A DNA stretch of 64,000 nt from Octopus vulgaris (taxonomy: Eukaryota): assembly GCA_951406725.2 (NCBI GenBank), contig CATOCA020000001.1, forward strand, positions 8,866,001-8,930,000, written 5' to 3'. The notes under the pieces were generated by a model. That model was not told the DNA's origin. It did no database searches and saw only the letters and a list, made by a program, of their open reading frames with translations. This document shows, in pieces, positions 353-64,000 of the stretch. Every line of letters begins with the position of its first letter. The stretch's first letter is position 1. Both the position numbers and the translations under genes were made by a program.

Positions 353-987
<635 letters not shown>

Positions 988-1033
988 AGACAGATAGACA
1001 GAAAGATATATAGATAGATAGATAGATATAGAT

Positions 1034-2554
1034 ATGTTTCTTTATTAGCCACACAGGGCTGCACACAGATAGAACAAATTACAAGGTAGAGCTTTTCTTT
1101 TGAAGGTTTAAAAAAAAAAAATAAAAAAAGGAAGGGGGAGTTTCGATCAAAAGGGATCGTAAAAGGAGAGAAAGAGGACAAAAAAAGGGGGTTAAAAAAA
1201 GGGGGAGAGGAAAAAAAAAAATTGATCAATAGGGATCGTTATCACAGAAATGTCAATATGAAGTGTAAAGGGGAGGACAGGTGAGGTTTACCCGTGGAAA
1301 GAAAAGCCTACGGAAAAGACCACGGTAACCTCGGTCAATGGAGTCACATGTTATATTTCTTTTTTCTTTTTTTTTTGCAAATAAGCAACTCTCTGTTTTC
1401 AATTTCTGGGTTCATAGGATCATGCTCAAGGTGGCTTCGTCATTCATACGTGCCATTCTTGCTACATTCACCCTTCTTTTTAAAACATTCGCTAGACAAA
1501 ACTTGCCTCTCTACTCTCACTTTCCTTTTCAAGTGGTACTTGAGGAAGTTGATGAGAGATTGACCAGAGAGGAAAGTGTTTGTCTCCAATCCTTTCAGAG
1601 GCATCCACCAGATACATTCTTTCGCCATAGCCACAAGGATGATGAAAATAGCTCTTCCTTCCGGTTTGAAGGAGGGAGGCGTGACAATATTAACGATAGA
1701 CTCAGCTGATAAACCGACTCGTCCCACACGTGACAGCAGTTGTTCGACACAAGCCCACAGGTCGGAAATTGTTGGACACTGCACGAGTGCGTGCAGAACG
1801 GTTTCGTCGCTCTGACCGCATCTCGGGCAGGTCGGCCCCGTGTTTCTCGAGCCGTGTCTGTAAAGCTTATCCCGAACGGGTAGCGCTTCTCAGTAGCACT
1901 GCCAGGCCAGGGATCTCTGGAAGTTGTCCATGGGCCCTGGCCCGAAAGTCGTCCTGAACAGGCGGGTCAGGTACTCCTCGTCGACGTCCAGGTTCGCCCC
2001 GAGCTCGTCGTCGTACCTCCCCTCCACTAAACCCCTATAGAATGCTTTGGTTGTGTTGAAGTCACTCAAGGTCGACCCAGGACGGCAGAGTTGCTTGAGA
2101 GCAACGCGACACTCGCGGTGCCATTCGCCCTTCTTCGGCCTCTTTTCGATCCACGACTGCAGTTTGGTCATGGAGACGAGCTGCGGGAAAGCGTGCCTCA
2201 CAAACGGCGACCACACCTGTTCACCGTCGTCTACATAGAGCCAGAGATGTCGCAGTCTCAGCGCGTGTCTGCGCATCATCAACCACGGCATGCCCAGCCC
2301 TCCTTTTAACGGGTGTTGACAGCAAATGGATCGCCTGACCATCGGGACGCATCCTTTCCACAAGAAGCAAAAGAGAATGCGTTGTAGTTTGGTGATGGTA
2401 GGGTCGGGACAAGGTACGACGGTCAGGCGATAGTAGATGACGGACACGATGCACGTGTTTGCCACCTCCGCCCGACCTTTTAGGGACAGTTTCCTCTCGG
2501 CCCATTGCCGGGCGAGAGTGGCCACCCTACTCGTTATCTCGTTCCAGTTCTTCT
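1034..2554 (-). mobile_element. Tx1/L1-clade LINE, 5'-truncated, disrupted ORF2
   Basis: W..RKLSLKGRA..N, FLWKG...P..GGLGMP and the CPRC..ETVLHALVQCP zinc-knuckle motif of L1/Tx1 ORF2; GATA repeats on both sides. Confidence 0.85.
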
Positions 2555-3260
<706 letters not shown>

Positions 3261-3967
3261 GACACACACATCCATATATACATGGTTGTAGTGTAAGGAG
3301 CTTTTTTCCCAGCCATACACGGTTCCACGTTGAATCCCTCTGCATGGAAACTCAGGCAAGTATATTCTACCCTTACCTAGGGCTGAACAAAAACTTGTTA
3401 GTGGATTTGGTAAATGAAAACTGAAAGAAGCTTCATAACAGGAGTGTGTCTATGTGTGTGCCTATGTAGGTGTGTGTGTGTGAGTTAGTGTTTGCATATG
3501 TGTGTGTGTGTGTGTAGCGGTTCGGTAAAGAGGCTGAGAGGATAAGTGATATGCTTAAAATAAAAGAAAGGACTGGGATCGATACATTTGACTAAAAATT
3601 CAAGGTGATGCCCCAGCATGACCGCAGTCAAATGCCTGAAACAATTAATATATATATATATCTATATATATATATGTATATACATATATACACATGATGT
3701 CTGTTATATTTTGGTTCATCTCGTAATGACGTAGTTTCATTTGACCATTAAAGATATCATTATCAGTGATGGTGGTCAGTTGGACTGTCAACACCGCTAA
3801 TATCAACATCAACATTATCAATATACAATTCCTCCACAAACACAAGGCTTTTGTAGTACATGTGATTAAATCTATCCCCATTATTTCACTGGTACATTGA
3901 TAATATTTATATTATACAGATCAATATAATACTGGAGAGTGTATATAATATATATTTATTAACTAAC

Positions 3968-4004
3968 CTTGTTCAGCATCACAGACACCACATTATAGTG
4001 TTGG
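3968..4004 (-). CDS. ANK-RING gene copy A, 37-nt micro-exon 5 (R-QHYNVVSVMLNK)
   Basis: tactttcAG acceptor, GTTAGT donor, phase 2 to 0, which is the bridge needed before the exon-6 type seen in copy B. Gene continues off the left edge. Confidence 0.8.
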
Positions 4005-4668
4005 CTGAAAGTAATGGATGAGGAAAGAAAAACATGAAAAAAGCAAACATCACACAGCTTGAGATAATAGTTATTAGGTCATTAAAGAAAACAAATGTAA
4101 TTAGGTCACAATAACTTAATTACAGCAATTATTACACACATACTCACACACACATATATATTTATTCAATACACACTCTACACAGTAGAACAATGATATA
4201 TACACACCTGAGTAAACCCAGAAATGTAAAGACAGGAAAAATACTGCTAAGAATTCTGACAGCTTATATAAACATGAAATTTAGGAAGGAAAGAAGGGCT
4301 ACAGGTAATCATATGAACCCCAGTACATGACTGGTATTGTATTTTATCAACCTTGCAAAGATGGAGGAGAAGTTGACCTTGGCAGGATTTGAACTCTGAA
4401 CGTAAAGAGTCGTAAATAAAATAACACAATTTATTTTCTACAAAAGTAATAAGAAACAAGAACAGGAGAAAAGAAGGAAGACAGTTTATTAAAGGAACCC
4501 CTGGGTATTACTGGTACAGATTATATTGACCCCAGAGTGATAGTAAATATTCTGGTAGGATTTGAACATGGAACATAAAGAGACAAATGTAAATACTGTA
4601 AGGGGATGATTCTGTATTTAGCCCAGGGTCGGAGTAAATAGGGAAACTACAAAGGAGAGAGAGTGAGG

Positions 4669-4717
<49 letters not shown>

Positions 4718-4993
4718 TAGTTCTAGATGGGATGAAAGGAAGAAGAGAGAGGATTTGAACCTGTGACGTTGAGGAAATGGAGAACGAGATGAAGTAAAGT
4801 GTCCAGTCAGGCAACAACAATAACAATTATGGTGATGATTAATTAATAAAGTAGATTACAGTGCGAAAGAGAGAAGAAAGACAATGACCCCATGGTGGGA
4901 TTATGACATGAATGACTGAATGAAAAAGAAACAAACATTATTGAAAACATAAAAGAAACAGATTTGGATATTCCAGATCCAATGGGGACTTAC

Positions 4994-5148
4994 CGCTGAA
5001 CTGCCACCTGCAGTGGTGTGTCTCCATCGTTGCCAACCACATTGGCATCAATGCCATTGTGACCCAACAACAGCTCGACAGTGTGAAAGCGTCCCCACGA
5101 ACAGGCCCAGTGCAGCGGTGTGCGACCAGCTTCATTTCGAGGATTAAC
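4994..5148 (-). CDS. ANK-RING gene copy A, coding exon 4 (VNPRNEAGRTPLHWACSWGRFHTVELLLGHNGIDANVVGNDGDTPLQVAVQ-R)
   Basis: tttatcAG acceptor, GTAAGT donor, 155 nt, phase 0 to 2; ankyrin frame differs from the ORF-track frame; paralog at 48966-49120. Confidence 0.92.
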
Positions 5149-8546: not shown

Positions 8547-8700
8547 CTCAACAGCGCTCTGTTTCATTATAGCTTTCATACCATCTGTCCATTCCGGATA
8601 TAACCTTGCAGCCAAATAGAGAGGAGTATATCCGCCGTTGGTCTTCTCGTTGACATTGCTGCCCCGAGAGAGTAATAGCTCCACAGCTTGCAGTCGACGC
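8547..8700 (-). CDS. ANK-RING gene copy A, coding exon 3 (RRLQAVELLLSRGSNVNEKTNGGYTPLYLAARLYPEWTDGMKAIMKQSAVE)
   Basis: ctctcAG acceptor, GTTAGT donor, 154 nt, phase 2 to 0; VELLLxxGxxVN...GxTPL ankyrin consensus. Confidence 0.9.
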
Positions 8701-8769: not shown

Positions 8770-12840
<4,071 letters not shown>

Positions 12841-13046
12841 TGTGATTGTTATGATTGAATAATGACTAATGAATTGGATCGATGACTAAAGAGAAGCTTC
12901 TTTTTGTTGTTGTTGTTGTTTGCTAGTCTGCTGTTGTGCTGTTGTCCCACAACTATGGCTTCTTTGGATATTGAACCTGTGTCTGCAATTGCAACAAATT
13001 TACAAACAAAAACACATCTGCAGATTTTACTTGATTCTCAACTTAC

Positions 13047-13204
13047 CAAGTCACAGCCCAATGCAAAGCTGTCTGACCCCATTGGTCTTTCGCTCCCATA
13101 TCGCCTCCTGCGTCTATCAAAATGTCGATGATTCTTATATCGGCTTCCTCTCGAGAGGCAAACATTAAAGGAGTTGCTCCAAACCATTCAATAGGTTTAT
13201 TAAT
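13047..13204 (-). CDS. ANK-RING gene copy A, coding exon 2 (INKPIEWFGATPLMFASREEADIRIIDILIDAGGDMGAKDQWGQTALHWAVT-W)
   Basis: ttacAG acceptor, GTAAGT donor, 158 nt, phase 0 to 2; ankyrin motifs GxTPLxxA and GxTALHxA. Confidence 0.9.
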
Positions 13205-13244
13205 CTGTAATGAAGAAAGTGAGGACATGTGAAATAGAGAAATT

Positions 13245-16200
13245 CCATTTTCTCTCTCTCTCTCTATCTTTTCTCTCTTTGTCTCTCACTCTCTTTCTCG
13301 TTTTCTTTCCTCTTTCTCTCCTTCTTTCTCTCTCTATCTCCCTCTTTCATTTCTATCCTTCTCTTTCTTTTCTCACTTTCTCTCTCTTTCCCCTTTTCTC
13401 TCTCTCTCTTTCTTTCTCCTCTCTCCGTGTCTCATTTACTCTCTCTCTCTTTTCTCTCTTTGTCTCTCACTCTCTTTCTCGTTTTCTTTCCTCTTTCTTT
13501 CCTCTTTCTCTCTCTATCTCCCTCTTTCATTTCTTTCCTTCTCTTTTTTTCTCTCTTTCTCTCTCTTTCCCCTTTTCTCTTCTCTCTCTTTCTTTCTCTC
13601 TCCGTGTCTCTTTTACTCTCTCTCTCTCTTTCTTTTCTCTCCTTTCCCATTTTCCTTTCCTCTCTTTCTATCTCTCATTTCCTTACTCTTTCTCTTTCTC
13701 ATTTTTCACTTATCTTTCTCTTTCTCTATTTTTCAATTTCTCTCTTTCTCTCTCCGTATCTCTCTCTCTTTCATTTCCCTCTCTTTCTATTCTTACATTC
13801 TTTCTCTTTCCCTTCTTCTTCTCTCTCTTTCATTCTCCCTCTCTCTTTTTCATATTTTTCCCTCTCTCTCATTCTTTTCTCTCTTTTTCCATTTTACTTT
13901 TCTCTGTTTCTCTCTTTTTCTTTCTCTTTCTTTATCTCTCTCTCTATTACCTTTTTTCGTTCTTTCTCTCTCTGTCTCCTTCACTTTTCTTTTTCTCTCT
14001 TTCACCCAACCTTTTTCATCTCTCTTCCTCTTTAACTTTTATTTCTATCTCTCTCTTTCTCTCTGTGCTTCTCTTTGCCTTTTCTATCTTACTTCCTCTT
14101 TCTCTTTTACTTTTCTGTCTTTCTTTGATGTCCTTTCTCTTTTCCTTTTCTCTCTCTCTCCCTTTCCTCTCTCTTTCTTCTTCTCTCACTCACTCACATT
14201 TTATTTTCTATTTTTCACTCTCTATGTCTCTAACTCTTTGTTCTCTCTTTCTCTCTCTTTCCTTCCTCTCTCTCTCTTTTGTATCTTTCTTCCTCTCTCT
14301 CTATTTCCCACTCTCTTTTCTCTCCTATATTCCCCTCTTTCCCTCTCTGTCTCCTTTCTCTTTCTCTCCCTCTCCTATTCTTATCTCTCACTTTCTTTTT
14401 CCCCCTTTCCCTCCTTCTTTCTCCCCCTCTCATTTTCTCTTCTCTCCTTCTCCCCCGCTCTTTTACCTTTCACTCCTGCTTTCCTTTTCTCTCTTTTTCT
14501 ATTCTCTCTTCTTTATCTCTCTCCTTTTCTTTTCCCTCTTTCTCTCTTTTTCTCTCCCTTACTCGCTTCCTTTTAACTCTCTCTTTCTTTCCTCTCTTCC
14601 TCTTACTCTCTGTTGTCTCCTTTCTCTGGTAATTTTTCTCTTCTCTTTTCCTCTCGCTCTCTCACTTTCTTTTTCTCTCTTCCTCCCTCTCCCTCTCTTT
14701 GTTTCTGTCTCTTTGACCTTTCCTTTCCCTCTTCTTTCCCTCTTTTCCTTTTCTCCCTTTAAGGGACTTACTTTTTTCTTTTCTCTCCTCTCTTGAGTTC
14801 TCACTTTAATTTTTCTCTTTCTCCCTCTTTCTTTTCTCTCATTCTCTTTATTCCTTTTACGTCTCTATTATCCCTCTCTTTCTTCCTCTCTCTCTCTCTC
14901 CCTTTTCCTCTCTTTATTTCTCTCAGTACCTTTTTCTTCTCTCATCCTCCATCTTTCTCTCTTCCTCTCCCTCTTTCTCTTTTTCTATTCTCGCTCTCTC
15001 CCACTCTGCTTCTTTCCTCTCCCTTTTTATTTCCTGGCTTTCCTTCTCCCTATCTCTCTTTATCTTTTCCTTTTCTCTCATTCTTTCTCTGTTTTCTTTC
15101 ACCCTATCTCTCTCTATCTCTTTCTTTTCTCTCTTTCACTCGTATTCTTTGTATGTTCTCTCTTTCTCTCTCATTTCCTCATTGTCTTTCTCTCTTTCTT
15201 TTTCTTTATCTCTCTCCCTTTCGTCTTCTCGTTTTTCCTCTCGTTTCTTTTTATCCTTCTTCCTCTCTCTCACTCTTTCATTTCTCTCCTTTTTCTCTCG
15301 TTTCTTTCTCTCTCTCTTTCCTTTCTCGCTCTCTCACTTTTTCCTCCTTCTTTCGCCCTCTTGTTTTCTTTCTTTCCTTCTTCATCTCTCTCACTCTTTC
15401 ATTTCTCTCTTTTTTCTCTCGTTTCTTTTTCTCTCTCTTTTTTTCTCGCTCTCTCGCTTTTTTCTCCTTTCTCCCTCTCATTTTCTTTTTATCCTTCTTC
15501 CTCTCTCTCACTCTTTCATTTCTCTCCTTTTTCTGTCGTTTCTTTCTCTCCCTCTCTTTCCTTTCTCGCTCTCTCTCACTTTTTCCTCCTTCTTTCTCCC
15601 TCTTCTTTTCTTTTTATCCCTCTTCCTCTCTCTCACTCTTTCATTTCTCTCTTTTTTCCCTCGTTTCTTTTTCTCTCTCTTTTTTTTCTCGCTCTCTCGC
15701 TTTTTCCTCCTTCTTTCTCTCTCTTTTTTTCTCACTCTCTCACTTTTTTCTCCTTCCTTCTCCCTCTCGTTTTCTTTTCATCATTCTTCCTCTCTCTCAC
15801 TCTTTCATTTCTTTCTTTTTCCTCTCGTTTCTTTTTCTCTCTGTTTCTTTACTCCCTTTTATCTCCTTCTATCTCCATCTCGTTATCTTTCTTTCCTTCT
15901 CCCTCTCTTTTATCCTTTTTCTGTCTCTCTTTCCTTTTCTCTCTTCTTCTTCCTCTCGTTTCTTTTTCTCTCACTTTTTTCTCCTTCTTTCTCCTTTTTT
16001 TTTCTTTTTATCCTTCTTCCTCTCTCTCACTCTTTCATTTCTCTCTTTCTTCCTCTCGCTCTCTCACTTTTATCTCCTTCTTTCTCCCTCTCGTTTTCTT
16101 TTTATCCTTCTTTCTCTCTCTCACTCTTTCATTTCTCTCTTTCTTCCACACGTTTCTTTTTCTCTCTCTTTCTTTTCTCGCTTTTATCTCCCTCTTTCTC

Positions 16201-19200
16201 CCTCTCGTTTTCTTTCTTTCCTTCTCCCTCTCTCTCACTCTTTCATTTCTCTCTTTTTACCGCTCGTTTCTTTTTCTCTCTCTTTCTTTTCTCGCTCTCT
16301 CACTTTTTTCTCCTTCTTTCTCCCTCTCGTTTTCTTTTTATCCTTCTTCGTGTCTCTCACACTTTCATTTGCTTCTTTTTCTCTTGTTTCCTTTTCTCTC
16401 ACTCTTTCCTTTCTCTCTTCTTCTTCCTCTCGTTTCTTTTTATCTCTCTTTCTTTCCTCTCGCTTTTTTCTCCTTCTTTCTCCCTTTCTTTTTCTTTTTA
16501 TCCTTTTTTCTCTCTCTCACCCTCTCATTTCTCTCTTTCTTCCTCTCGTTTCTTTTTCTCTCTCTTTCTTTTCTCGCTTTTATCTCCTCCTATCTCGCTC
16601 TCGTTTTCTTTCTTTCCTTCTCCCTCTCTTTTATCCTTCTTTCTCTCTCTCACTCTTTCATTTCTTTCTTTTTTCTCTTGTTTCTTTTTCTCTCTCTCTT
16701 TCCTTTTCTCTCTTCTTCTTCCTCTCGTTTCTTTTTTTCTCTCTTTCTTTTCTCTCGCTTTTTTCTCCTTCTTTCTCCCTGTCTTTTTCTTTTTATCCTT
16801 CTTCCTCACTCTCACTCTTTCATTTCTCTCTTTCTTCCTCTTGCTCTCTCACTTTTATCTCCTTCTTTCTCCCTCTCGTTTTATTTTTATCCTTCTTCCT
16901 CTTTTTCACTCTTTCATTTCTCTTCTTCTTCCTCTCATTTCTTTTTCTCTCTCTTTCTATTCTCACTCTCTCTCTTTTTTCCCTTCATTCTCCCTGTCTT
17001 TTTCTTTTTATCCTTCTTCTTCTCTCTCACTCTTCCATTTCTCTCTTTCTTCATATCGTTTCTTTCTCTCTCTCTCTTTCTTTTCTCGTTCTCTCGCGTT
17101 TTTCTCCTTCTTTCTCCCTCTCGTTTTCTTTTAATCCTTCTTTCTCTCACTCACTCTTTTTTCCTCTCGTTTCTTTCTCTCTCTCTCCTTTTCTCGCTCA
17201 CTCAATTTTTTTTCCTTCTTTCTTCCTCTCTCTCACTCTTTCATTTCTCTCTTTCTCTTTCTTTTCTCGCCCTCTCGCTTTATTCTCCATCTTTCTCCCT
17301 CTCGTTTTCTTTTTATCCTTCTTTCTCTCTCTCACTCTTTCATTTCTCTCTTTCCTCTTCTCCTTTTTTTCTCACTCTCTTTCTTTTTTCTCTTTCTTCT
17401 TCTCATTTTCTTTTTATCCTTCTTCCTCTCTCTCACTCTTTCATTTCTCTCTTTTTCCTCTCGTTTTTTTTTCTCTCTCTTTCTTTTCTTACTCTGAGGC
17501 TTTTTTCTCCTTTCTTCTCGCTCTCTTTCATTTATTTCTCTCTCTCTCTTTCTTTTCTCGCTCTCTCGCTTTTTTCTCCTTCTTTCTCCCCCTCGTTTTC
17601 TTTTTATCCTTCTTCCTCTCTCTCACTCTTTCATTTCTCTCTTTCTTCCTCTCGTTTCTTTCTCTCTCTCTTTCTTTTCTCGCTCTCTCGCTTTTTTCTC
17701 CTTCTTTCTCCCTCTCGTTCATTTTATCCTTCTTCCTCTCTCTCACTCTTTCATTTCTCTTTCTTCCTCTCGTTTCTTTCTTCTCTCTCCTTCTTTCTCC
17801 CTCTTGTTTTCTTTTTATCCCTCTTCCTCTCTCTCACTCTTTCATTTCTCTTCTTCTTCCTCTCGTTTCTTTTTCTCTCTCTTTCTTTTCTCTCTCTCTC
17901 TTTTTTCCCTTCTTTCTCCCTCTCGTTTTCTTTTTATCCTTCTTCCTCTCTCTCACTCTTTCATTTTCTCTCTTTCTTCCTCTCGTTTCTTTTTCTCTCT
18001 CTTTCCTTTTCTCACTCTATCACTTTTTTCTCCTTCCTTCTCCCTGTCGTTTTCTTTTTATCCTTCTTCCTCTCTCTCACTCTTTCATTTCTCTCTTTCT
18101 TCCTCTCGTTTCTTTTTCTCTCTCTTCCTTTTCTCACTCTATCACTTTTTTCTCCTTCCTTCTCCCTCTCGTTTTCTTTTTATCCTTCTTCCTCTCTCTC
18201 ACTCTTTCATTTCTCTCTTTCTTCCTCTCGTTTCTTTTTCTCTCTCTTTCTTTTCTTACTCTCTCACTTTTTTCTCCTTCATTCTCCCTCTCGTTTTCTT
18301 TTTATCCTTATTCCTCTCTCTCACTCTTACATTTCTCTCTTTCTTCCTCTCGTTTCTCTCTCTCTCTTTCTTTTCTCACTCTCTGACTTGTTTCGCTTTC
18401 CTTCTCCCTCTCGTTTTTCTTTTTATCCTTCTTCATCTCTCTCACTCTTTCATTTCTTTCTCTCTCTCTCCTTTTCTCGCTCACTCACTTTTTTCTCCTT
18501 CTTTCTCCCCCTCGTTTTCTTTTTATCCTTCTTCCTCTCTCTCACTCTTTCATTTCTCTCTTTCTTCCTCTCGTTTCTTTCTCTCTCTCTTTCTTTTCTC
18601 ACTCTCTCACTTTTCTCTCCTTCTTTCTCCCTCTCGTTTTCTTTTTATCCTTCTTCCTCTCTCTCACTCTTTCATTTCTCTCTTTCTTCCTCTTGTTTCT
18701 TTCTCTCTTTCTTTCTTTTCTCGCTCTTTCAGTTTTTCCTCCCTCTTTCTCCCTCTCGTTTTCTTTTTATTCTTCTTCCTCTCACTCTTTCATTTCTCTC
18801 TTTCTTTCTCTCATTTCTTTTTCTCACTCTCTTTCTTTTCTCACTCTCTCACTTTTCTCTCTTTCTTTCTTCCTCGTTTTCTTTTTATCTTTTATCCTCT
18901 CTCTCACTCTTTCATTTCTCTCTTTCTTCCTCTTCGTTTCTTTTTCTCTCTCTTTCTTTTCTTGCTCTCTCCCGTTTTTCTCCTTCTTTCTCCCTCTCGT
19001 TTTCTTTTTATCCTTGTTCCTCTCTCTCACTCTTTCATTTCTCTCTTTCTTCCTTTCGTTTCTTTTTCTCTCTCTTTCTTTCCTCGCTCTCTCACTTTTT
19101 CTCCTTTCTTTCTCCCTTCTGCCTTTCTTTTTATTATTCTTCCTCTCTCTCACTCTTTTTTTCTCTCATTTCTTTTTCTCACTCTCTTTCTTTTCTCGCT

Positions 19201-19720
19201 CTCTCGCTTTTTTCTCTTTCTTTCTCCCTCTCGTTTTCTTTTTATCCTTCTTCCTCTCTCTCACTCTTTCATTTCTCTCTTTCTTCCTCTCGTTTCTTTC
19301 TCTCTCTCTCTTTCTTTTCTCGCTCTCTCACTTTTTTCTCCTTCTTTCTCCCTCTCGTTTTCTTTTTATCCTTCTTCCTCTCTCTGACTCTTTCATTTCT
19401 CTCTTTCTTCCTCTCGTTTCTTTTCTCTCTCTCATTTCTTTCTCACTCTCTCACTTTTCTCTCCCTTCTTTCTCCCTCGTTTTCTTTTTATCCTTCTTCC
19501 TCTATCTCACTATTTCATTTCTCTCTCTTTATTTTCTCTCTCCTTTTCTTTTTTCAATCTCTTTCTCTTAATCTTTTCTCTCCTTTTTTCTCTCTCTCTC
19601 TTTCTCTGTTTCGTTTCTCTTTTTGTCTTCTCTATAATTCTCTCTCAATTTTCCTTTTCTTTCTTCTATTTTTCTATTCTTCTCTTCTTTTTTCTCTTTC
19701 CTTTTCTTTCTTCTTCTTGT
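13245..19720. repeat. ~6.5-kb polypyrimidine (CT-rich) tract with a ~120-bp satellite unit from ~15230 to ~19520
   Basis: Motif TATCCTTCTTCCTCTCTCTCACTCTTTCATTTCTC recurs about every 120 bp (e.g. 18060, 18181, 18303). Confidence 0.95.
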
Positions 19721-19935
19721 TTCAGTCATGAGACTGCGGCCATGCTGGGGCTCCTCCTCGATTTTGTCTTTTATGTGTGATACCTTTTCTGTCTAATTAG
19801 CACCAACCTATAGATCTCTTTTGCTTCAGGCCAAAGTAACAGGGATGCTAATACACCGACACCGATTATCAATTAGCAGTTAGGGACACACACTTGCATA
19901 GATACACATGCATACACATACACACACAAACACAA

Positions 19936-19968
<33 letters not shown>

Positions 19969-19984
19969 CGATTTAATAACACCT

Positions 19985-21420
19985 GTAAGGATGTGTTTTA
20001 TCTATTCACCAAAGTGAATGGAGCCTGCAGAAAGCTCTTATATCTGTCACACTTCCGTTCATGGGCCTCGTTACAACCCGCACCCCACGTGACTGTTCAT
20101 TCAATTATGATTTTCTGGGCCTTTACAGACCACAGAACCACATCAGGCCTCAGGGTTGTATGGATGAACTGGGGAAACTGCAATCTCTTCCTTAAATCTA
20201 CCTTCATATCCCATGGTTGAGACCCTTGCAGCAAGCTGTGTATTGCTTTTGCTGGCTTTACTGGTTCCTGTCCCTCTTTCACGAACTTAATTGCGGCAGT
20301 TATCTTCCCTTGGTGATGATGTTTCTTACACCTTTACTGCTCCAGGGTGTGAGCAAGTATTTGTATCTGCCTTGAGAAAGTGTTATTCTGCACCCTGCCA
20401 AGATGTGTGCCAGAGTGCCCCTTTCCCACAAAGTCTACACAGCTGGTCTTCCCTCAAACCTTATCTGTCCTGGTTTGTTGACGTCGGGAGTGTGTCATAC
20501 ACTGCTCCATGCAGGAAGGAGATGTGCAAAGGTTCCAGCCTCCACAGGTCAGTCCATGTGAGCTTCTTCTTAGGGAGATCCCATTTAGTCCATGCACTCA
20601 GAGATACCAACTCCACAGCTCTTTATTTCCTTTTATCTTCCTCCTGGTACCGCACCGCTTTCTCGGTCATAGCCCGCCTCTCCTTGGTGTCTACTTTCTT
20701 CTATTGTTGGAAATAGGAAGAGCCAAGTCCCTGGTGACCCCAACATGTAGCTCCAATTATGACGCGTGGCTCCAGTATGCCTTCAGCCTGAGCGAAAGCG
20801 GTGCTAGTTACCCACACCTTGTGGTAATACCTGCATGTCTGACAAGCTCGTCCTTAGGGACTCTGTACATCATTACATTACATTTTGCTACTTTAAATTC
20901 CTCCATTAAATACAACAGGGGAAGTTGTAGCCTTCCAGATCTTATGGACAGGCCTACTGAAGTGAAGCTTGGGAAACTCCTAGCAATCTTCGGAGGTATT
21001 TAGTTATCTTTCTCTCCACCCTTTCCACACTTGTCATTGGAGCATCATACAGCGTCAGCAACCATATGAGTCTTGGGAGCAGTCTGTGTTGGTAGAGCCA
21101 TGCCCTGAACTTTCCTGGAAGCCCTGATCTATCAATCCTCATCAGCCACTCCTCTGCTTGCTTTACAATTTTGGTGACATTGCTTCTCTCTGACAGTGAC
21201 TTGTCAAACATCTTTTCAAGTCATTTACTAGGATTTACCTCTATTGATGGAATGCTCCTTGCACTTGGGGCCTGATTTTGTTGGTTACCTTACTGCCCTC
21301 CCTGATTACCATGCTCCCCCGAAATGCATAGGAAGATGGTTCAATTCATGCATAAGCTCAATGAAGAGAAAGAAAACCACTTTATGTTTGTCACTGAATC
21401 TAATACAAAGTAATTATTTG
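19985..21420 (-). mobile_element. Degenerate HERO-like (R2-group, RLE endonuclease) non-LTR retrotransposon fragment
   Basis: IDRSGLPGKFRAWLYQH..LPRLIW.L..Y and LRPDVVLWS..QKIIIE(*TV.W) motifs; many frameshifts. Confidence 0.75.
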
Positions 21421-22900: not shown

Positions 22901-23068
22901 TTTGGTCAATACTTTTATTATAACATTAATGGCAATTAGAGGAAAGAGATGAAGAAAGAAAAGAAATATTATGGAGAAATAAATGGAGTTAGTTTGAAGT
23001 TTTCAAATTGCGTATAAAATAATAAAGAAATAGGCAAATTTGAGAAAGCAATAAACAGAACAACTTAC

Positions 23069-23146
23069 TTCGCCTGGCCTCTCCTCAATTAAGATTTTCA
23101 ATCCTTCCACATCATTATTTCTAATTTTATCAAAGATTGAGTCCAT
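23069..23146 (-). CDS. ANK-RING gene copy A, first coding exon (MDSIFDKIRNNDVEGLKILIEERPGE)
   Basis: Acceptor ttattcAG ending at 23152, ATG at 23146, 26 codons, GTAAGT donor in phase 0 matching the next exon; resembles an ankyrin N-cap helix pair. Not in the ORF track. Confidence 0.7.
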
Positions 23147-43095: not shown

Positions 43096-43838
43096 TGTTC
43101 TGCTTGTAAGTAAAGCCTTTTGTCAGCGTTGTAAATTTAATCTCGTATTTTATCTGGAAATTAGGTCGAGTGTTTATGACATTCCTCTTGTGTTGCATGG
43201 CTGCCATGGTATATACAAGCGGGGAAGGCCATTGCCGCTCCTAACAGAAGTCATTATGTAAATAATGTCAATAGAAAGAAGATAAGATAATTCAATATTT
43301 GAAGTGGTGTGCAAAGTTGTTTGAATATCAGTGGCTTATTTGGTCCACGTGAGTTCAATTCCTTGTAAAGCATTGTGTCCTTGAGTAAGACTCTTTATTT
43401 CCCGTTGCTCCAGTTCAATCTGGTGGTAAAAACAAGTAGTACCTGTATTTCAAAGGGCCAGCCTTGTCCCACTCTGTGTCACGCTGATTCTCCCGCAGAA
43501 TTACGTTAATTGTACACGTTTCTGTGGAGTGTTCGGCCCCTTGACAATAATTTCACGAGGAGGCTGTTCCGTCGATCGGACACCTTGGAACCTTTGTTAT
43601 TGTAACTGAGTGTCACTGATATATATAACAAACAACAAATGCACTACGGAGGAAACAACTACCAACACAATATACCTGAGGAACTAAGACGTAACACTAG
43701 GTTCAACAACAGACTCCAGAACAGAGCACCACAAACTCACTCTGACAATTATAACAACATGAGACAGATAAATAATAGCTTTGAACATAACTACACCAAC
43801 CATTTTTTAGACCCCACACACAGGAACAGGGACACACG

Positions 43839-46112
43839 ATGGCAAAGGACAAACAAAAGAAACCTCAGGTAATTAAGATAATCAATCTCTCAAACAAAGA
43901 ACTTACACCTAACGAAATAAGCATACTCTCCAAAGGACTTAAATTTACACCCACCCCACAACGTTCTAATTATTATGAAATGAAAGATGATATTTCGGAA
44001 TTTTGCAGAAAACTAAGACTCACCGAGGCATTTCAAGACAAACAAATAGAGGAGGACTCAATAGCTAGAAACAAGAGCAATTACACCCCCACCAAAGGTA
44101 AGAATAAAGCCTTAGACCGCTATTGTGACTACATAACTAATTTCCCGTTTCAATTCATCAAGAAACAAAAACACAGCCCTAACTTCAACAAAAGAGAATG
44201 GAACGACCTCATCAAACTAAGAGAAGACAAAACAATAACAATTAAGGAGGCAGATAAGGGCAACGCGATAGTAATAATGAATACAAACAATTATAAAAAT
44301 TTAGTGCTATCCCTATTAAGAGATGAAACGTATTATGAAAGGGCCCAACAGTATAACCAGCAAAAAATAATGCATAACCTTAGGACATTAATCAACACAT
44401 ACCAAGAAGGACTCACGAACAAGGAGTATGAATACATCACTAACTTCAAATGCAAATCGAGTTTGTTCTATGGTATCCCTAAGGTACACAAAAGCCAAAC
44501 CATTAGAGAAACGTGCAAAACATCCACCGACACACTCATCAAAATCCCTTCACCAAATGATCTTAAACTAAGACCGATAATAGCAGGGCCAGCATGTGAA
44601 ACTCACCGCCTCAGCAATTTCTTAGACACACTTCTTAAACCTTTCCTAAAACACATCAAAAGCTACGTAAGAGACGATATAGATATGCTCAACCACCTCC
44701 CTAAAACAGTCAATGAGAAAACCCTTCTAGTATCATTCATCCCTCACAACCTAGGAATAGAAGCGATCACCTTCTGGCTGAATAACTACCCCTTTGAACT
44801 CCCAACTCGCATAAACAAAGACCTTATAATAGAAGGACTTAGATTCATTTTAGAGAACAATTATTTTATTTTTGACAATGATTTCTACAGGCAAAGATCG
44901 GGAACAGCGATGGGCACGCGTACTGCACCATCTTTTGCCAACCTAGTGATGGGATACCTCGAGAAAATACTATACCGGATGACACTCGAGAAATATGGAA
45001 ACACCTTCGCCACCTATATCCATAACAACTGGAAAAGATACCTCGATGACTGTTTCATCATCTGGGACAAAGGCATAGAGAAACTTGAGGAATTTAAAAT
45101 TCTATTAAATGGAATAAATGACAATATACAATTCACGATGGACCACAACGAAAAAGAATTACCATTTTTAGACATCCTCATTAAGAAAACCGGCAACAAA
45201 ATAGAGACAGATATCTACTATAAACCGACAGACTCTAAACAGTACCTACCCTTTGATTCATGCCACCCACGACACACTAGAATGAATGTCCCTTTTTGTT
45301 TAGCTAGAAGGATTTGCACCATAATATCAGACACAAACACCCGACACACACGTCTCCAGGAACTTAGAACCACACTCACAAATAGAAACTATCCACAGCC
45401 CCTAATAGACAGTGCAATCCAACGGGTACTTAAATTAAGTATAGAAGACCTGAGACAAACAAAACCAAAAAAGAAAGAACAATTAAAAACCCTTCCCTAC
45501 ATCTCTACACACAACCCACTCAACAATGAGGCCTTCAACACCATACTACAAAGCACAGCCCTACTAAAGGGAGACCCAAAGATGAACCAGATCCTCGAAA
45601 CACACACCATCATTAAAAGTAAACGGCAACCAAAATCCTTGAAAAGGATTTTAACCCAAGCTACACTGCACTCAACATCAACCACAAAACCAGCAGTTAG
45701 AAAATGTGGAAGGCCCAACTGCGGAATCTGTGTCATCTTGAAAGAAGGATCAGAATTTATACTGGAACAAGGCCACCAGTTCACCATTAGAACAAACTTC
45801 ACCTGCGCATCAGAAAACTTAATTTACGTCATAACATGCGCAGGCTGCAATAGGCAGTATATAGGACATACAAAAAATAGCTTACGTAACAGGATGGCGG
45901 TGCATAAATCACAAATTAGAAACCCTGATTACCGCAAAATACCGGTCAGCGGACACATAGATAGATGTGCTGGAAATGTAAATCCGAAATTTACAACTAA
46001 CCCGCTCTATAAATTCAGTGACAACGCAACCTTCACACAACGCCAAAATAAAGAACTATATTTCATAAAAAAATTTAGACCAAGTTTAAACACCCTGGGC
46101 CAGGAATACTAA
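43839..46112 (+). CDS. Penelope reverse transcriptase + GIY-YIG endonuclease, 757 aa, with in-frame loss of RT motif A
   Basis: FYGIPKVHK, LRPII, GTAMGT..AP, RYLDD, LPFLD, YYKPT, SCHP and NLIYVITC..C..QYIG.T...R...H motifs. Confidence 0.92.
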   Translation: MAKDKQKKPQVIKIINLSNKELTPNEISILSKGLKFTPTPQRSNYYEMKDDISEFCRKLRLTEAFQDKQIEEDSIARNKSNYTPTKGKNKALDRYCDYITNFPFQFIKKQKHSPNFNKREWNDLIKLREDKTITIKEADKGNAIVIMNTNNYKNLVLSLLRDETYYERAQQYNQQKIMHNLRTLINTYQEGLTNKEYEYITNFKCKSSLFYGIPKVHKSQTIRETCKTSTDTLIKIPSPNDLKLRPIIAGPACETHRLSNFLDTLLKPFLKHIKSYVRDDIDMLNHLPKTVNEKTLLVSFIPHNLGIEAITFWLNNYPFELPTRINKDLIIEGLRFILENNYFIFDNDFYRQRSGTAMGTRTAPSFANLVMGYLEKILYRMTLEKYGNTFATYIHNNWKRYLDDCFIIWDKGIEKLEEFKILLNGINDNIQFTMDHNEKELPFLDILIKKTGNKIETDIYYKPTDSKQYLPFDSCHPRHTRMNVPFCLARRICTIISDTNTRHTRLQELRTTLTNRNYPQPLIDSAIQRVLKLSIEDLRQTKPKKKEQLKTLPYISTHNPLNNEAFNTILQSTALLKGDPKMNQILETHTIIKSKRQPKSLKRILTQATLHSTSTTKPAVRKCGRPNCGICVILKEGSEFILEQGHQFTIRTNFTCASENLIYVITCAGCNRQYIGHTKNSLRNRMAVHKSQIRNPDYRKIPVSGHIDRCAGNVNPKFTTNPLYKFSDNATFTQRQNKELYFIKKFRPSLNTLGQEY

Positions 46113-48965: not shown

Positions 48966-49120
48966 GTTAATCCTCGAAATGAAGATGGTCGCACACCGCT
49001 GCACGTGGCCTGTTCACGGGGATACTTGCACATTGTCGACATTTTGTTGGGTCACAATGGCATCGATGCCAATGTGGTTGACAACAATGGAGACACACCA
49101 CTGCATGATGCAGTTCGGAG
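48966..49120 (+). CDS. ANK-RING gene copy B, exon 4 paralog (VNPRNEDGRTPLHVACSRGYLHIVDILLGHNGIDANVVDNNGDTPLHDAVR-R)
   Basis: tttatcAG / GTAAGT, 155 nt, canonical ankyrin repeat; inverted paralog of 4994-5148. Confidence 0.92.
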
Positions 49121-50097: not shown

Positions 50098-50132
50098 GCA
50101 AAATATGAACAGTGTGTGCGATGCTGAAGCAG
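50098..50132 (+). pseudogene. ANK-RING gene copy B, micro-exon 5 paralog, 35 nt (frameshifted as assembled)
   Basis: Same splice flanks as 3968-4004 but 2 nt shorter; adding one A to each of two A-runs gives R-QKYETVCAMLKQ. Confidence 0.7.
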
Positions 50133-54899: not shown

Positions 54900-55112
54900 G
54901 ATTCGGTGAATTTAGAAATTGTGAACAAAGAATATAGGACACCATTGCTTGAAGCTGTTTCGGACGGTCACCTCGGAATAATGCAGCGGCTGATAGCCAG
55001 GGGCGCGAATGTAAATGTTGTCGAACATGGAGGAAATAATTGCCTGCATCTGGCGTTAAAAAGAGAAAACAACTTTCATTCTGAGGTGGAGCACATGACC
55101 ATGTTAGATCAG
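54900..55112 (+). CDS. ANK-RING gene copy B, exon 6 (DSVNLEIVNKEYRTPLLEAVSDGHLGIMQRLIARGANVNVVEHGGNNCLHLALKRENNFHSEVEHMTMLDQ)
   Basis: Pyrimidine tract + AG acceptor, GTAAGT donor, 213 nt, phase 0 to 0; ankyrin motifs TPLLEA..GH..GANVN..NCLHLA. Confidence 0.9.
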
Positions 55113-58628: not shown

Positions 58629-58808
58629 TACTTAAAAGATCTGAAACTGGGAAAGAAAGAAAGGTACTCTGGCGTGGTGGTTGCCAGTTACCTAGCCCAC
58701 CACGGGGCCAACTTTTACTGTAAAAACAAAATTGGCAGAACACCATTGGACCTAATAAAAAAGGAAAAATTAAAAAAAAACGTTAAAGACGTTATTCCGA
58801 CCAACGCA
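58629..58808 (+). CDS. ANK-RING gene copy B, exon 7 (YLKDLKLGKKERYSGVVVASYLAHHGANFYCKNKIGRTPLDLIKKEKLK...), frameshift in A9 run
   Basis: tttgtAG acceptor, GTAAGT donor; terminal ankyrin motif YLxxxGAxxxxKNxxGxTPLDL; needs phase 2 to join the RING exon but ends in phase 0 as assembled. Confidence 0.8.
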
Positions 58809-59331
58809 GTAAGTATTCACTGGCAATGACAAGATAAACCATTACATTTTCTATTTTGTATATAACCGTGTTTATATGTTTATATTGTTTTAATTCGACT
58901 GATACATTATACTGCTTTAGAGGCTTAATGAAAGGTTACGCAACAACAGTAAGAAGAACAATAAACGATATGCAGTTGTTAAGCTAATTAAAGAAAGAAC
59001 ACTATTTTGATTACATTCAAATGATTGGTTGTGTTGACTGTTATACCTCTCCTAAAATCCCAACCCACCTCTCTCAGTTCCCTATTTTAAAGATTTGGGA
59101 CCAATGAGAAAATGTAGAAGTAAATAGTGAAGTGATGGAATTTATCTGTCTACCAACAGATTGTTCCTCTGTTTTCTCTGTCCCAGCCAGTCATGTCCAT
59201 GTGAGCTATCCTGAGAAAATCACTACAAACACATACAATGAGTGTACATACACGAATATATACATACATACATACATACATACATACATACATACATACA
59301 TACAGACATATATATGTATATACACACACAC

Positions 59332-63578: not shown

Positions 63579-63721
63579 ATGTCGCTACTGTCAAGAGAAC
63601 ATGGCCACTGTGAGACTGCAACCATGTGGAGATCTTGTTCTCTGCGAGAATTGTTCTTCTGAAATGACAATTAAGAGATGCCCCGTGTGTCGAGAATACA
63701 CCCTCAGCAAAAGTGAATTTG
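63579..63721 (+). CDS. ANK-RING gene copy B, RING-finger exon (CRYCQENMATVRLQPCGDLVLCENCSSEMTIKRCPVCREYTLSKSEF)
   Basis: ttccatAG acceptor, GTAAG donor; C-x2-C-x11-C-G-D-x3-C-x2-C-x8-C-x2-C spacing of MIB/IAP-type RING-HC fingers. Gene continues off the right edge. Confidence 0.88.
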
Positions 63722-64000
63722 GTAAGATAATCTTTGGGGCTCTGTTTGTTGTCTTGTTGACCTTATTGTGTGGAATAATGTGCTTCAAGCTTTCGTGTAG
63801 ACCCAGGTATGTCATAATGGGACAGATTTATGATAGGTGTTCCTGGGGTCTTTTCTTTGTGACAGTATATCTATCACTACATCCACTAAATATTGCCTTT
63901 ACCTAATTTTAAGATGTCACACTTCAAGATGTCTGTCAGGATATGTTGTTTAGGTACGTACCCTGAATGTCTCTTTAGGTACGTACCCTGAATTATAAGA

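Follow-up and report, generated by a model that had tools for sequence, protein, structure and literature searches.

A spliced micro-exon marks an Octopus ankyrin-RING-Death gene family in which exons are more diverse than introns, probably through paralog conversion and selection

The DNA analysed here, hereafter the window, is a 64,000-nt stretch of the Octopus vulgaris genome that lies within contig C31 and contains an inverted pair of partial gene copies, at 1-7.6 kb (copy A) and 47.4-52.1 kb (copy B). The exons of both copies are listed in Table 1. The 3' half of copy A falls outside the window, no exons 1-3 were found upstream of copy B within it, and copy B carries two frameshifts, one in the micro-exon and one in exon 7. 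The micro-exon of copy A is bounded by ttTCAG and GTTAGT, and that of copy B has the same splice sites. Just upstream of the start of the copy B homology is a 773-aa open frame (43791-46112, plus strand) with a GIY-YIG domain at its end, which we take to be Penelope-like; it may mark the 5' truncation of copy B. The introns of copy A contain about 11 kb of low-complexity DNA of extreme strand skew (~8800-20000; first CAT/CCT triplets, further on CT-rich) and, after the micro-exon, a GC-rich retroelement-like fragment (~650-2560, minus strand) that has no Pfam match and whose 3' end is tandemly duplicated (650-963 and 1224-1540).

Table 1. Exons and intron 4 of the two gene copies in the window.
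Feature	Position	Strand	Description
Likely first coding exon, copy A	23068..23146	-	starts MDSIFDKIRNNDVEGLK; ends approximate; tblastn with paralogs P0004/P0006
Exon 2, copy A	13047..13207	-	ankyrin; ends approximate
Exon 3, copy A	8547..8700	-	ankyrin
Exon 4, copy A	4994..5148	-	155 nt; ankyrin repeats, variable codons within invariant framework
Intron 4, copy A	4005..4993	-	989 nt, GT-AG; removed in transcript-like contigs of paralogs
Micro-exon, copy A	3968..4004	-	37 nt; last base of split codon + QHYNVVSVMLNK; helix1-helix2 turn and outer helix of ankyrin repeat
Exon 4, copy B	48966..49120	+	
Micro-exon, copy B	50098..50132	+	35 nt, frameshifted as assembled
Exon 6, copy B	54900..55112	+	ankyrin, type I
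Exon 7, copy B	58629..58809	+	frameshift near 58757; ends approximate
RING-finger exon, copy B	63579..63722	+	ends approximate; PF13920 in family members

Exons 3 and 4 encode ankyrin repeats, and the exon-4 peptide is 100% identical to part of a 457-aa O. vulgaris protein labelled 'MIB2-like', the close homologues of which all belong to Octopus. Besides ankyrin repeats, family members have a C3HC4 RING and, in most cases, a Death domain (five proteins scanned). Mind bomb (MIB1/MIB2) E3 ligases likewise have ankyrin repeats followed by a zf-C3HC4_3 RING, and are defined by MIB/HERC2, ZZ and SH3-like N-terminal domains. The octopus family differs from them. These N-terminal domains were absent from all five proteins scanned, as were a central NACHT or NB-ARC domain and any other Mind bomb or NLR domain; the family has one RING and a C-terminal Death domain, and is multi-copy and hypervariable. 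Searching with the half that follows the ankyrin repeats yielded 63 proteins, from Octopus in every case where the name was legible, and ten mid-ranking matches checked from a wider HMMER search were all from Octopus. In the ESM Atlas the sole matches were generic ANK-RING clusters below 0.9. No published description of an Octopus ankyrin-RING-Death family was found in the literature searched, and the passages of PMC13218726 and PMC10970066 reached by term look-ups contain none; the supplements of octopus genome papers could list the family.

The family is large and diverse. The exact 31-nt donor flank occurs 45 times in the genome (control 0) and the exon-4 motif 62 times. Copies were collected from 90 fetched loci and the window, and all counts are lower bounds: at least 57 micro-exons, 40 of them on C31, and at least 62 copies of exon 4. 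The 57 micro-exons comprise 40 distinct sequences, and 51 are intact. The other six have indels or stops at variable sites (four of the wrong length, one with a stop and one with a probable compensated shift) and were left out of the codon and linkage tests (n = 51); they raise the possibility that dissimilar haplotypes were merged into a consensus in part of the assembly. Seven dispersed copies (L031, L032, L071, L072, L074, L075 and L076, on C2, C4, C6, C7 and C9) lie within ~0.25 Mb of contig ends, a location that may favour ectopic exchange. At several loci (L040-L042, L057-L058, L061-L062 and L076) the exon 3/exon 4 module is apparently repeated in tandem inside single genes, and proteins P0002 and P0005 contain an exon 4 to exon 3 join. 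In an alignment of annotated proteins, some of which may be chimeric models, the types of exon 6, exon 7, RING and Death domain are combined in many ways, which suggests whole-exon shuffling along the gene. A copy on the 74-kb contig C49 (L002/L068) has the same micro-exon as copy A and introns that differ by 1.6%; it is possibly the other allele of copy A.

The sequence-only reading took the 37-nt segment for a micro-exon, and transcript-like contigs bear this out. Contigs in which exon 4 is joined to the micro-exon and precisely 989 nt are missing were present in four of four runs from four studies; the runs are presumed, by guess, to be RNA, and the junctions are those of paralog-type variants on the acceptor side of the micro-exon. 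Many annotated O. sinensis proteins also carry the micro-exon peptide between exon-4 and exon-6 sequence. In the predicted structure of paralog P0004 (pLDDT 86), used for secondary structure only, the micro-exon corresponds to residues 144-156, comprising the turn after the inner helix and the outer helix (147-154).

The comparison of copies A and B that drew attention to the micro-exon holds up. Some 12 differences had been reported within it, between identical flanks of about 30 nt before and 60 nt after; the micro-exons differ by ten substitutions and two bases missing in copy B, and there are no differences over 38 nt upstream of the acceptor and 65 nt downstream of the donor. At the intron SNP rate of this pair (45 in 1589 nt), the probability of at least ten differences in 35 nt is 3e-8. 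The same pair differs at 20 sites in the 155 nt of exon 4 versus 12 in the intervening 989-nt intron. Two SNP-dense intronic windows separate A from B, one with seven SNPs within 24 nt, +222 to +245 from the donor (window 3723-3746), and one with 11 SNPs that borders a TA microsatellite. Near the former is the intronic window with the highest diversity across the family (pi 0.15). Intronic patches as divergent as the micro-exon are not common, however; none of 1480 intronic 37-nt windows in 32 genes exceeded a pi of 0.151, versus 0.265 for the micro-exon. The peptide that had been restored for copy B (QKYETV...) is absent among the intact variants, three of which have the ACA codon, always preceded by GAT, so that the restoration is doubtful.

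Across the family, exon diversity exceeds that of introns. Pi is 0.267 in the micro-exon (57 copies) and 0.147 in exon 4 (62 copies), versus 0.01-0.10 in 25-nt flank windows, and the median p-distance of intron 4 is 0.045. Exons 2, 3 and 6 were measured in the 14-15 copies of each that lie inside fetched loci: pi was 0.204 in exon 2 versus 0.054 and 0.065 in its flanks, 0.199 versus 0.11 for exon 3 and, within type, 0.080 versus 0.011 for exon 6. All five exons tested thus show the excess, and an effect specific to the micro-exon was rejected. Ascertainment through intron similarity was also rejected, since recollecting copies by the exon-4 pattern left the result unchanged.

The limits of divergence are set by codon rather than by exon. 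Variation in exon 4 is confined to 19 of 51 codons, mainly at hairpin and inner-helix positions, and these stand beside framework codons whose wobble bases are mostly invariant (wobble pi of at most 0.04 in 24 of the 32 amino-acid-invariant codons). The micro-exon looks exon-bounded because ten of its 12 codons vary. The earlier claim that divergence stops at the splice sites is true of the A/B pair, but probably reflects codon-level selection, and the same pattern is seen in exons 2, 3, 4 and 6. In the 51 intact micro-exons pN is 0.29 versus a pS of 0.17, with pN greater than pS in 99.8% of codon bootstraps. Many of the variants are older than the split between two Octopus species, and not fresh mutations, because 15 of 28 distinct O. 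sinensis micro-exon peptides (31 pattern matches minus three from other repeats) exactly match peptides in the O. vulgaris genome. Mutagenesis of the kind directed by diversity-generating retroelements produces adenine-specific variation from a template; it was rejected here, C/G/T exchanges being common at the variable codons.

The micro-exon variants are mosaics of shared blocks; the TCCA block, for example, is found with four different middle blocks. Linkage within the micro-exon decays from an r2 of 0.23 to 0.03 over 36 nt (no equally extreme value in 1000 permutations), and four-gamete failures become more frequent with distance (from 0.26 to 0.77). Intron SNPs decay similarly, from 0.17 to about 0.05 by 30-60 nt. 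The same micro-exon also occurs on other backgrounds, as a check for mosaicism had called for: in 18 of 20 gene pairs with identical micro-exons, exon 4 has diverged by 6-17%. Such pairs share intron alleles at +1 to +40 (ratio 0.29, p 0.0005) and at -40 to 0 (0.63, p 0.03), and no sharing was found beyond -80 or +80. The effect persisted after removal of recent whole-gene duplicates, which were thereby rejected as its source. Genomic conversion is favoured because genes with the same micro-exon share intron alleles within ~80 nt. On a larger scale, the 5' module is common to old 3' subfamilies; genes that share just 70-76% identity at exon 6 are in most cases 86-95% alike over the region between -1.5 and +0.3-0.7 kb of the micro-exon. 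Coupling of micro-exon type to exon-6 type was not seen, the same peptides preceding types I and II.

It is probable that the micro-exon is a spliced coding exon of an Octopus ankyrin-RING-Death family whose exons are more diverse than its introns, likely through frequent short-tract conversion between paralogs combined with selection. Near-identical introns would let paralogs pair and exchange short tracts by ectopic gene conversion. Conversion would homogenise unselected DNA, that is, introns and framework codons, while selection would keep old amino-acid variants that exchange recombines into new mosaics. The sequence-only reading put forward two routes, and the family-wide data support this one, in which conversion homogenises introns and selection preserves the differences between exons. 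Conversion, and not serial duplication alone, appears to be the process of exchange, and selection the force that retains exon variants. Several findings count against this explanation. The last 10 nt of the micro-exon have no overall linkage to the flanks, and flanks taken as 250 nt do not follow the exon (rho 0.05). Exon 4 has a pN of 0.14 and a pS of 0.15 (pN/pS 0.93 overall), and seven of its 32 invariant codons have high wobble diversity. In the P0004 model the micro-exon is mostly outer helix, not the concave binding face, and the annotated model of copy A (P0003) skips the micro-exon.

A history in which the 5' module was recently duplicated in series and point mutations then came under strong positive selection, conversion playing little part, would fit introns that are uniformly about 4.5% apart and a micro-exon pN some six times the intron diversity. 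It is nevertheless unlikely, given multi-base blocks that recur on unrelated backgrounds, linkage that falls with distance, identical micro-exons that adjoin diverged copies of exon 4, variants common to two species, and segment histories that are incongruent as judged by linkage, Mantel and permutation tests. The second route proposed at the outset, exon-limited replacement templated by spliced paralog transcripts (cDNA-mediated conversion), would explain the sharp boundaries at the splice sites. It also draws on the 250-nt flanks, which track each other (rho 0.27) and do not track the micro-exon (rho 0.05), and on copy B and a copy 3.1 Mb away (C31:5816730), which have no differences over 455 nt, two in the intron, and then different micro-exons; the latter case, which also fits conversion between paralogs, is uncertain because copy B is frameshifted. 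However, adjacent intron alleles travel with the exon, the 3' end of exon 4 and the 5' end of the micro-exon are unlinked across the spliced junction (rho -0.07), and none of 62 exon-4 copies joins the micro-exon without an intron, 61 running into their own intron donor. Nor are variable sites adenine-restricted, and a cDNA route can reshuffle variants but cannot create a family-wide exon excess. The cDNA proposal is unsupported by these data and is very improbable.

An artefact of assembly or polishing, whereby multi-mapping reads homogenised the introns or mixed haplotypes made mosaic exons, is given an equally low probability. Indels at variable sites, in the six defective micro-exons and in several exon-4 copies, and the two frameshifts of copy B are what it would leave behind, yet the introns contain tens of copy-specific SNPs and large insertions, most micro-exons are intact, and independently annotated O. 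sinensis proteins contain the same peptides, which also turn up as joints in public runs. Artefact probably accounts only for the broken copies. It is harder still to credit that purifying selection on splicing or regulatory elements conserves the introns beside the exons and that the exons, their constraint relaxed, are drifting. The 40-60 nt upstream of exon 6 are similar even between old subfamilies, as such selection would have it, but similarity covers the whole 989-nt intron, simple repeats included, the framework codons do not vary, and the micro-exon has a higher pN than pS.

The preferred explanation, paralog conversion with selection on exon variants, has precedents. In a study of primate (gibbon) L/M opsin paralogs, exons are more divergent than introns, which is ascribed to conversion of introns and selection against conversion of exons (PMC3213168). 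The octopus family is like the opsins in that exon divergence exceeds intron divergence, and its segment histories are incongruent, with exchanged tracts that include intron DNA. The opsins, as described there, are two genes with fixed differences and a dN not above dS; in contrast, the octopus family has ~57 genes, dozens of variants, pN above pS in the micro-exon, and shuffling of blocks inside a 37-nt exon. A report on Podospora NLR genes describes concerted evolution of ankyrin repeats with positive selection on the binding face (PMC4986451). Fungal NLRs with ANK, WD or TPR repeats resemble the octopus family in their homogenised framework, in hypervariable inner-helix and hairpin positions of the kind seen in octopus exon 4, and in exchange within and between loci. 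They have a NACHT/NB-ARC core and repeats homogenised within the gene, whereas the octopus proteins are ANK-RING-Death without an NTPase, and their repeats are split over exons and homogenised between paralogs, introns included.

Two further systems resemble the octopus family in part. In Ectocarpus, repeat exons of ROCO LRR and NB-ARC-TPR genes are positively selected and shuffled, the genes are candidate immune receptors, and many are pseudogenes (PMC3341825). One exon there equals one repeat and spare exons lie in introns; octopus exons and repeats do not coincide, and the units exchanged are smaller than an exon. Variation in octopus exon 4 falls at hairpin and inner-helix positions that differ among the aligned repeats of DARPin libraries (PMC8683736). 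Unlike DARPins, the octopus proteins are natural, and variation of the micro-exon extends onto the outer helix. Exon 4 thus has variable residues on the ankyrin hairpin and inner helix within a homogenised framework, and variation of the micro-exon is mainly on the outer helix.

Finally, the micro-exon feature is real and is explained by a known kind of process; since an explanation for higher exon than intron diversity already exists, it reveals no new mechanism. Its importance is as the marker of an Octopus family that is apparently undescribed and is shuffled on a fine scale: ~57 genes, Octopus only in the searches run, filed under 'MIB2-like', with a variable ankyrin surface, an E3 ligase and a death domain. 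This architecture suggests that the proteins may act as variable sensors of targets, linked to a ubiquitin ligase and to a death domain, ubiquitinating their targets or signalling, and a role as immune sensors is conceivable. Tentatively, the family may be an undescribed cytosolic recognition repertoire of octopus, with DARPin-like ankyrin heads joined to a RING ligase and to a death domain. Introns that are nearly identical could then serve as homology arms through which dozens of genes, some clustered and some dispersed, exchange ankyrin exons and blocks smaller than an exon. New binding specificities would arise continually and might differ from allele to allele, or even from cell to cell. 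If it is a pathogen-sensing repertoire, the family would represent a diversified intracellular receptor system in cephalopods and would serve as a test case for diversification by conversion on a scale finer than the exon.
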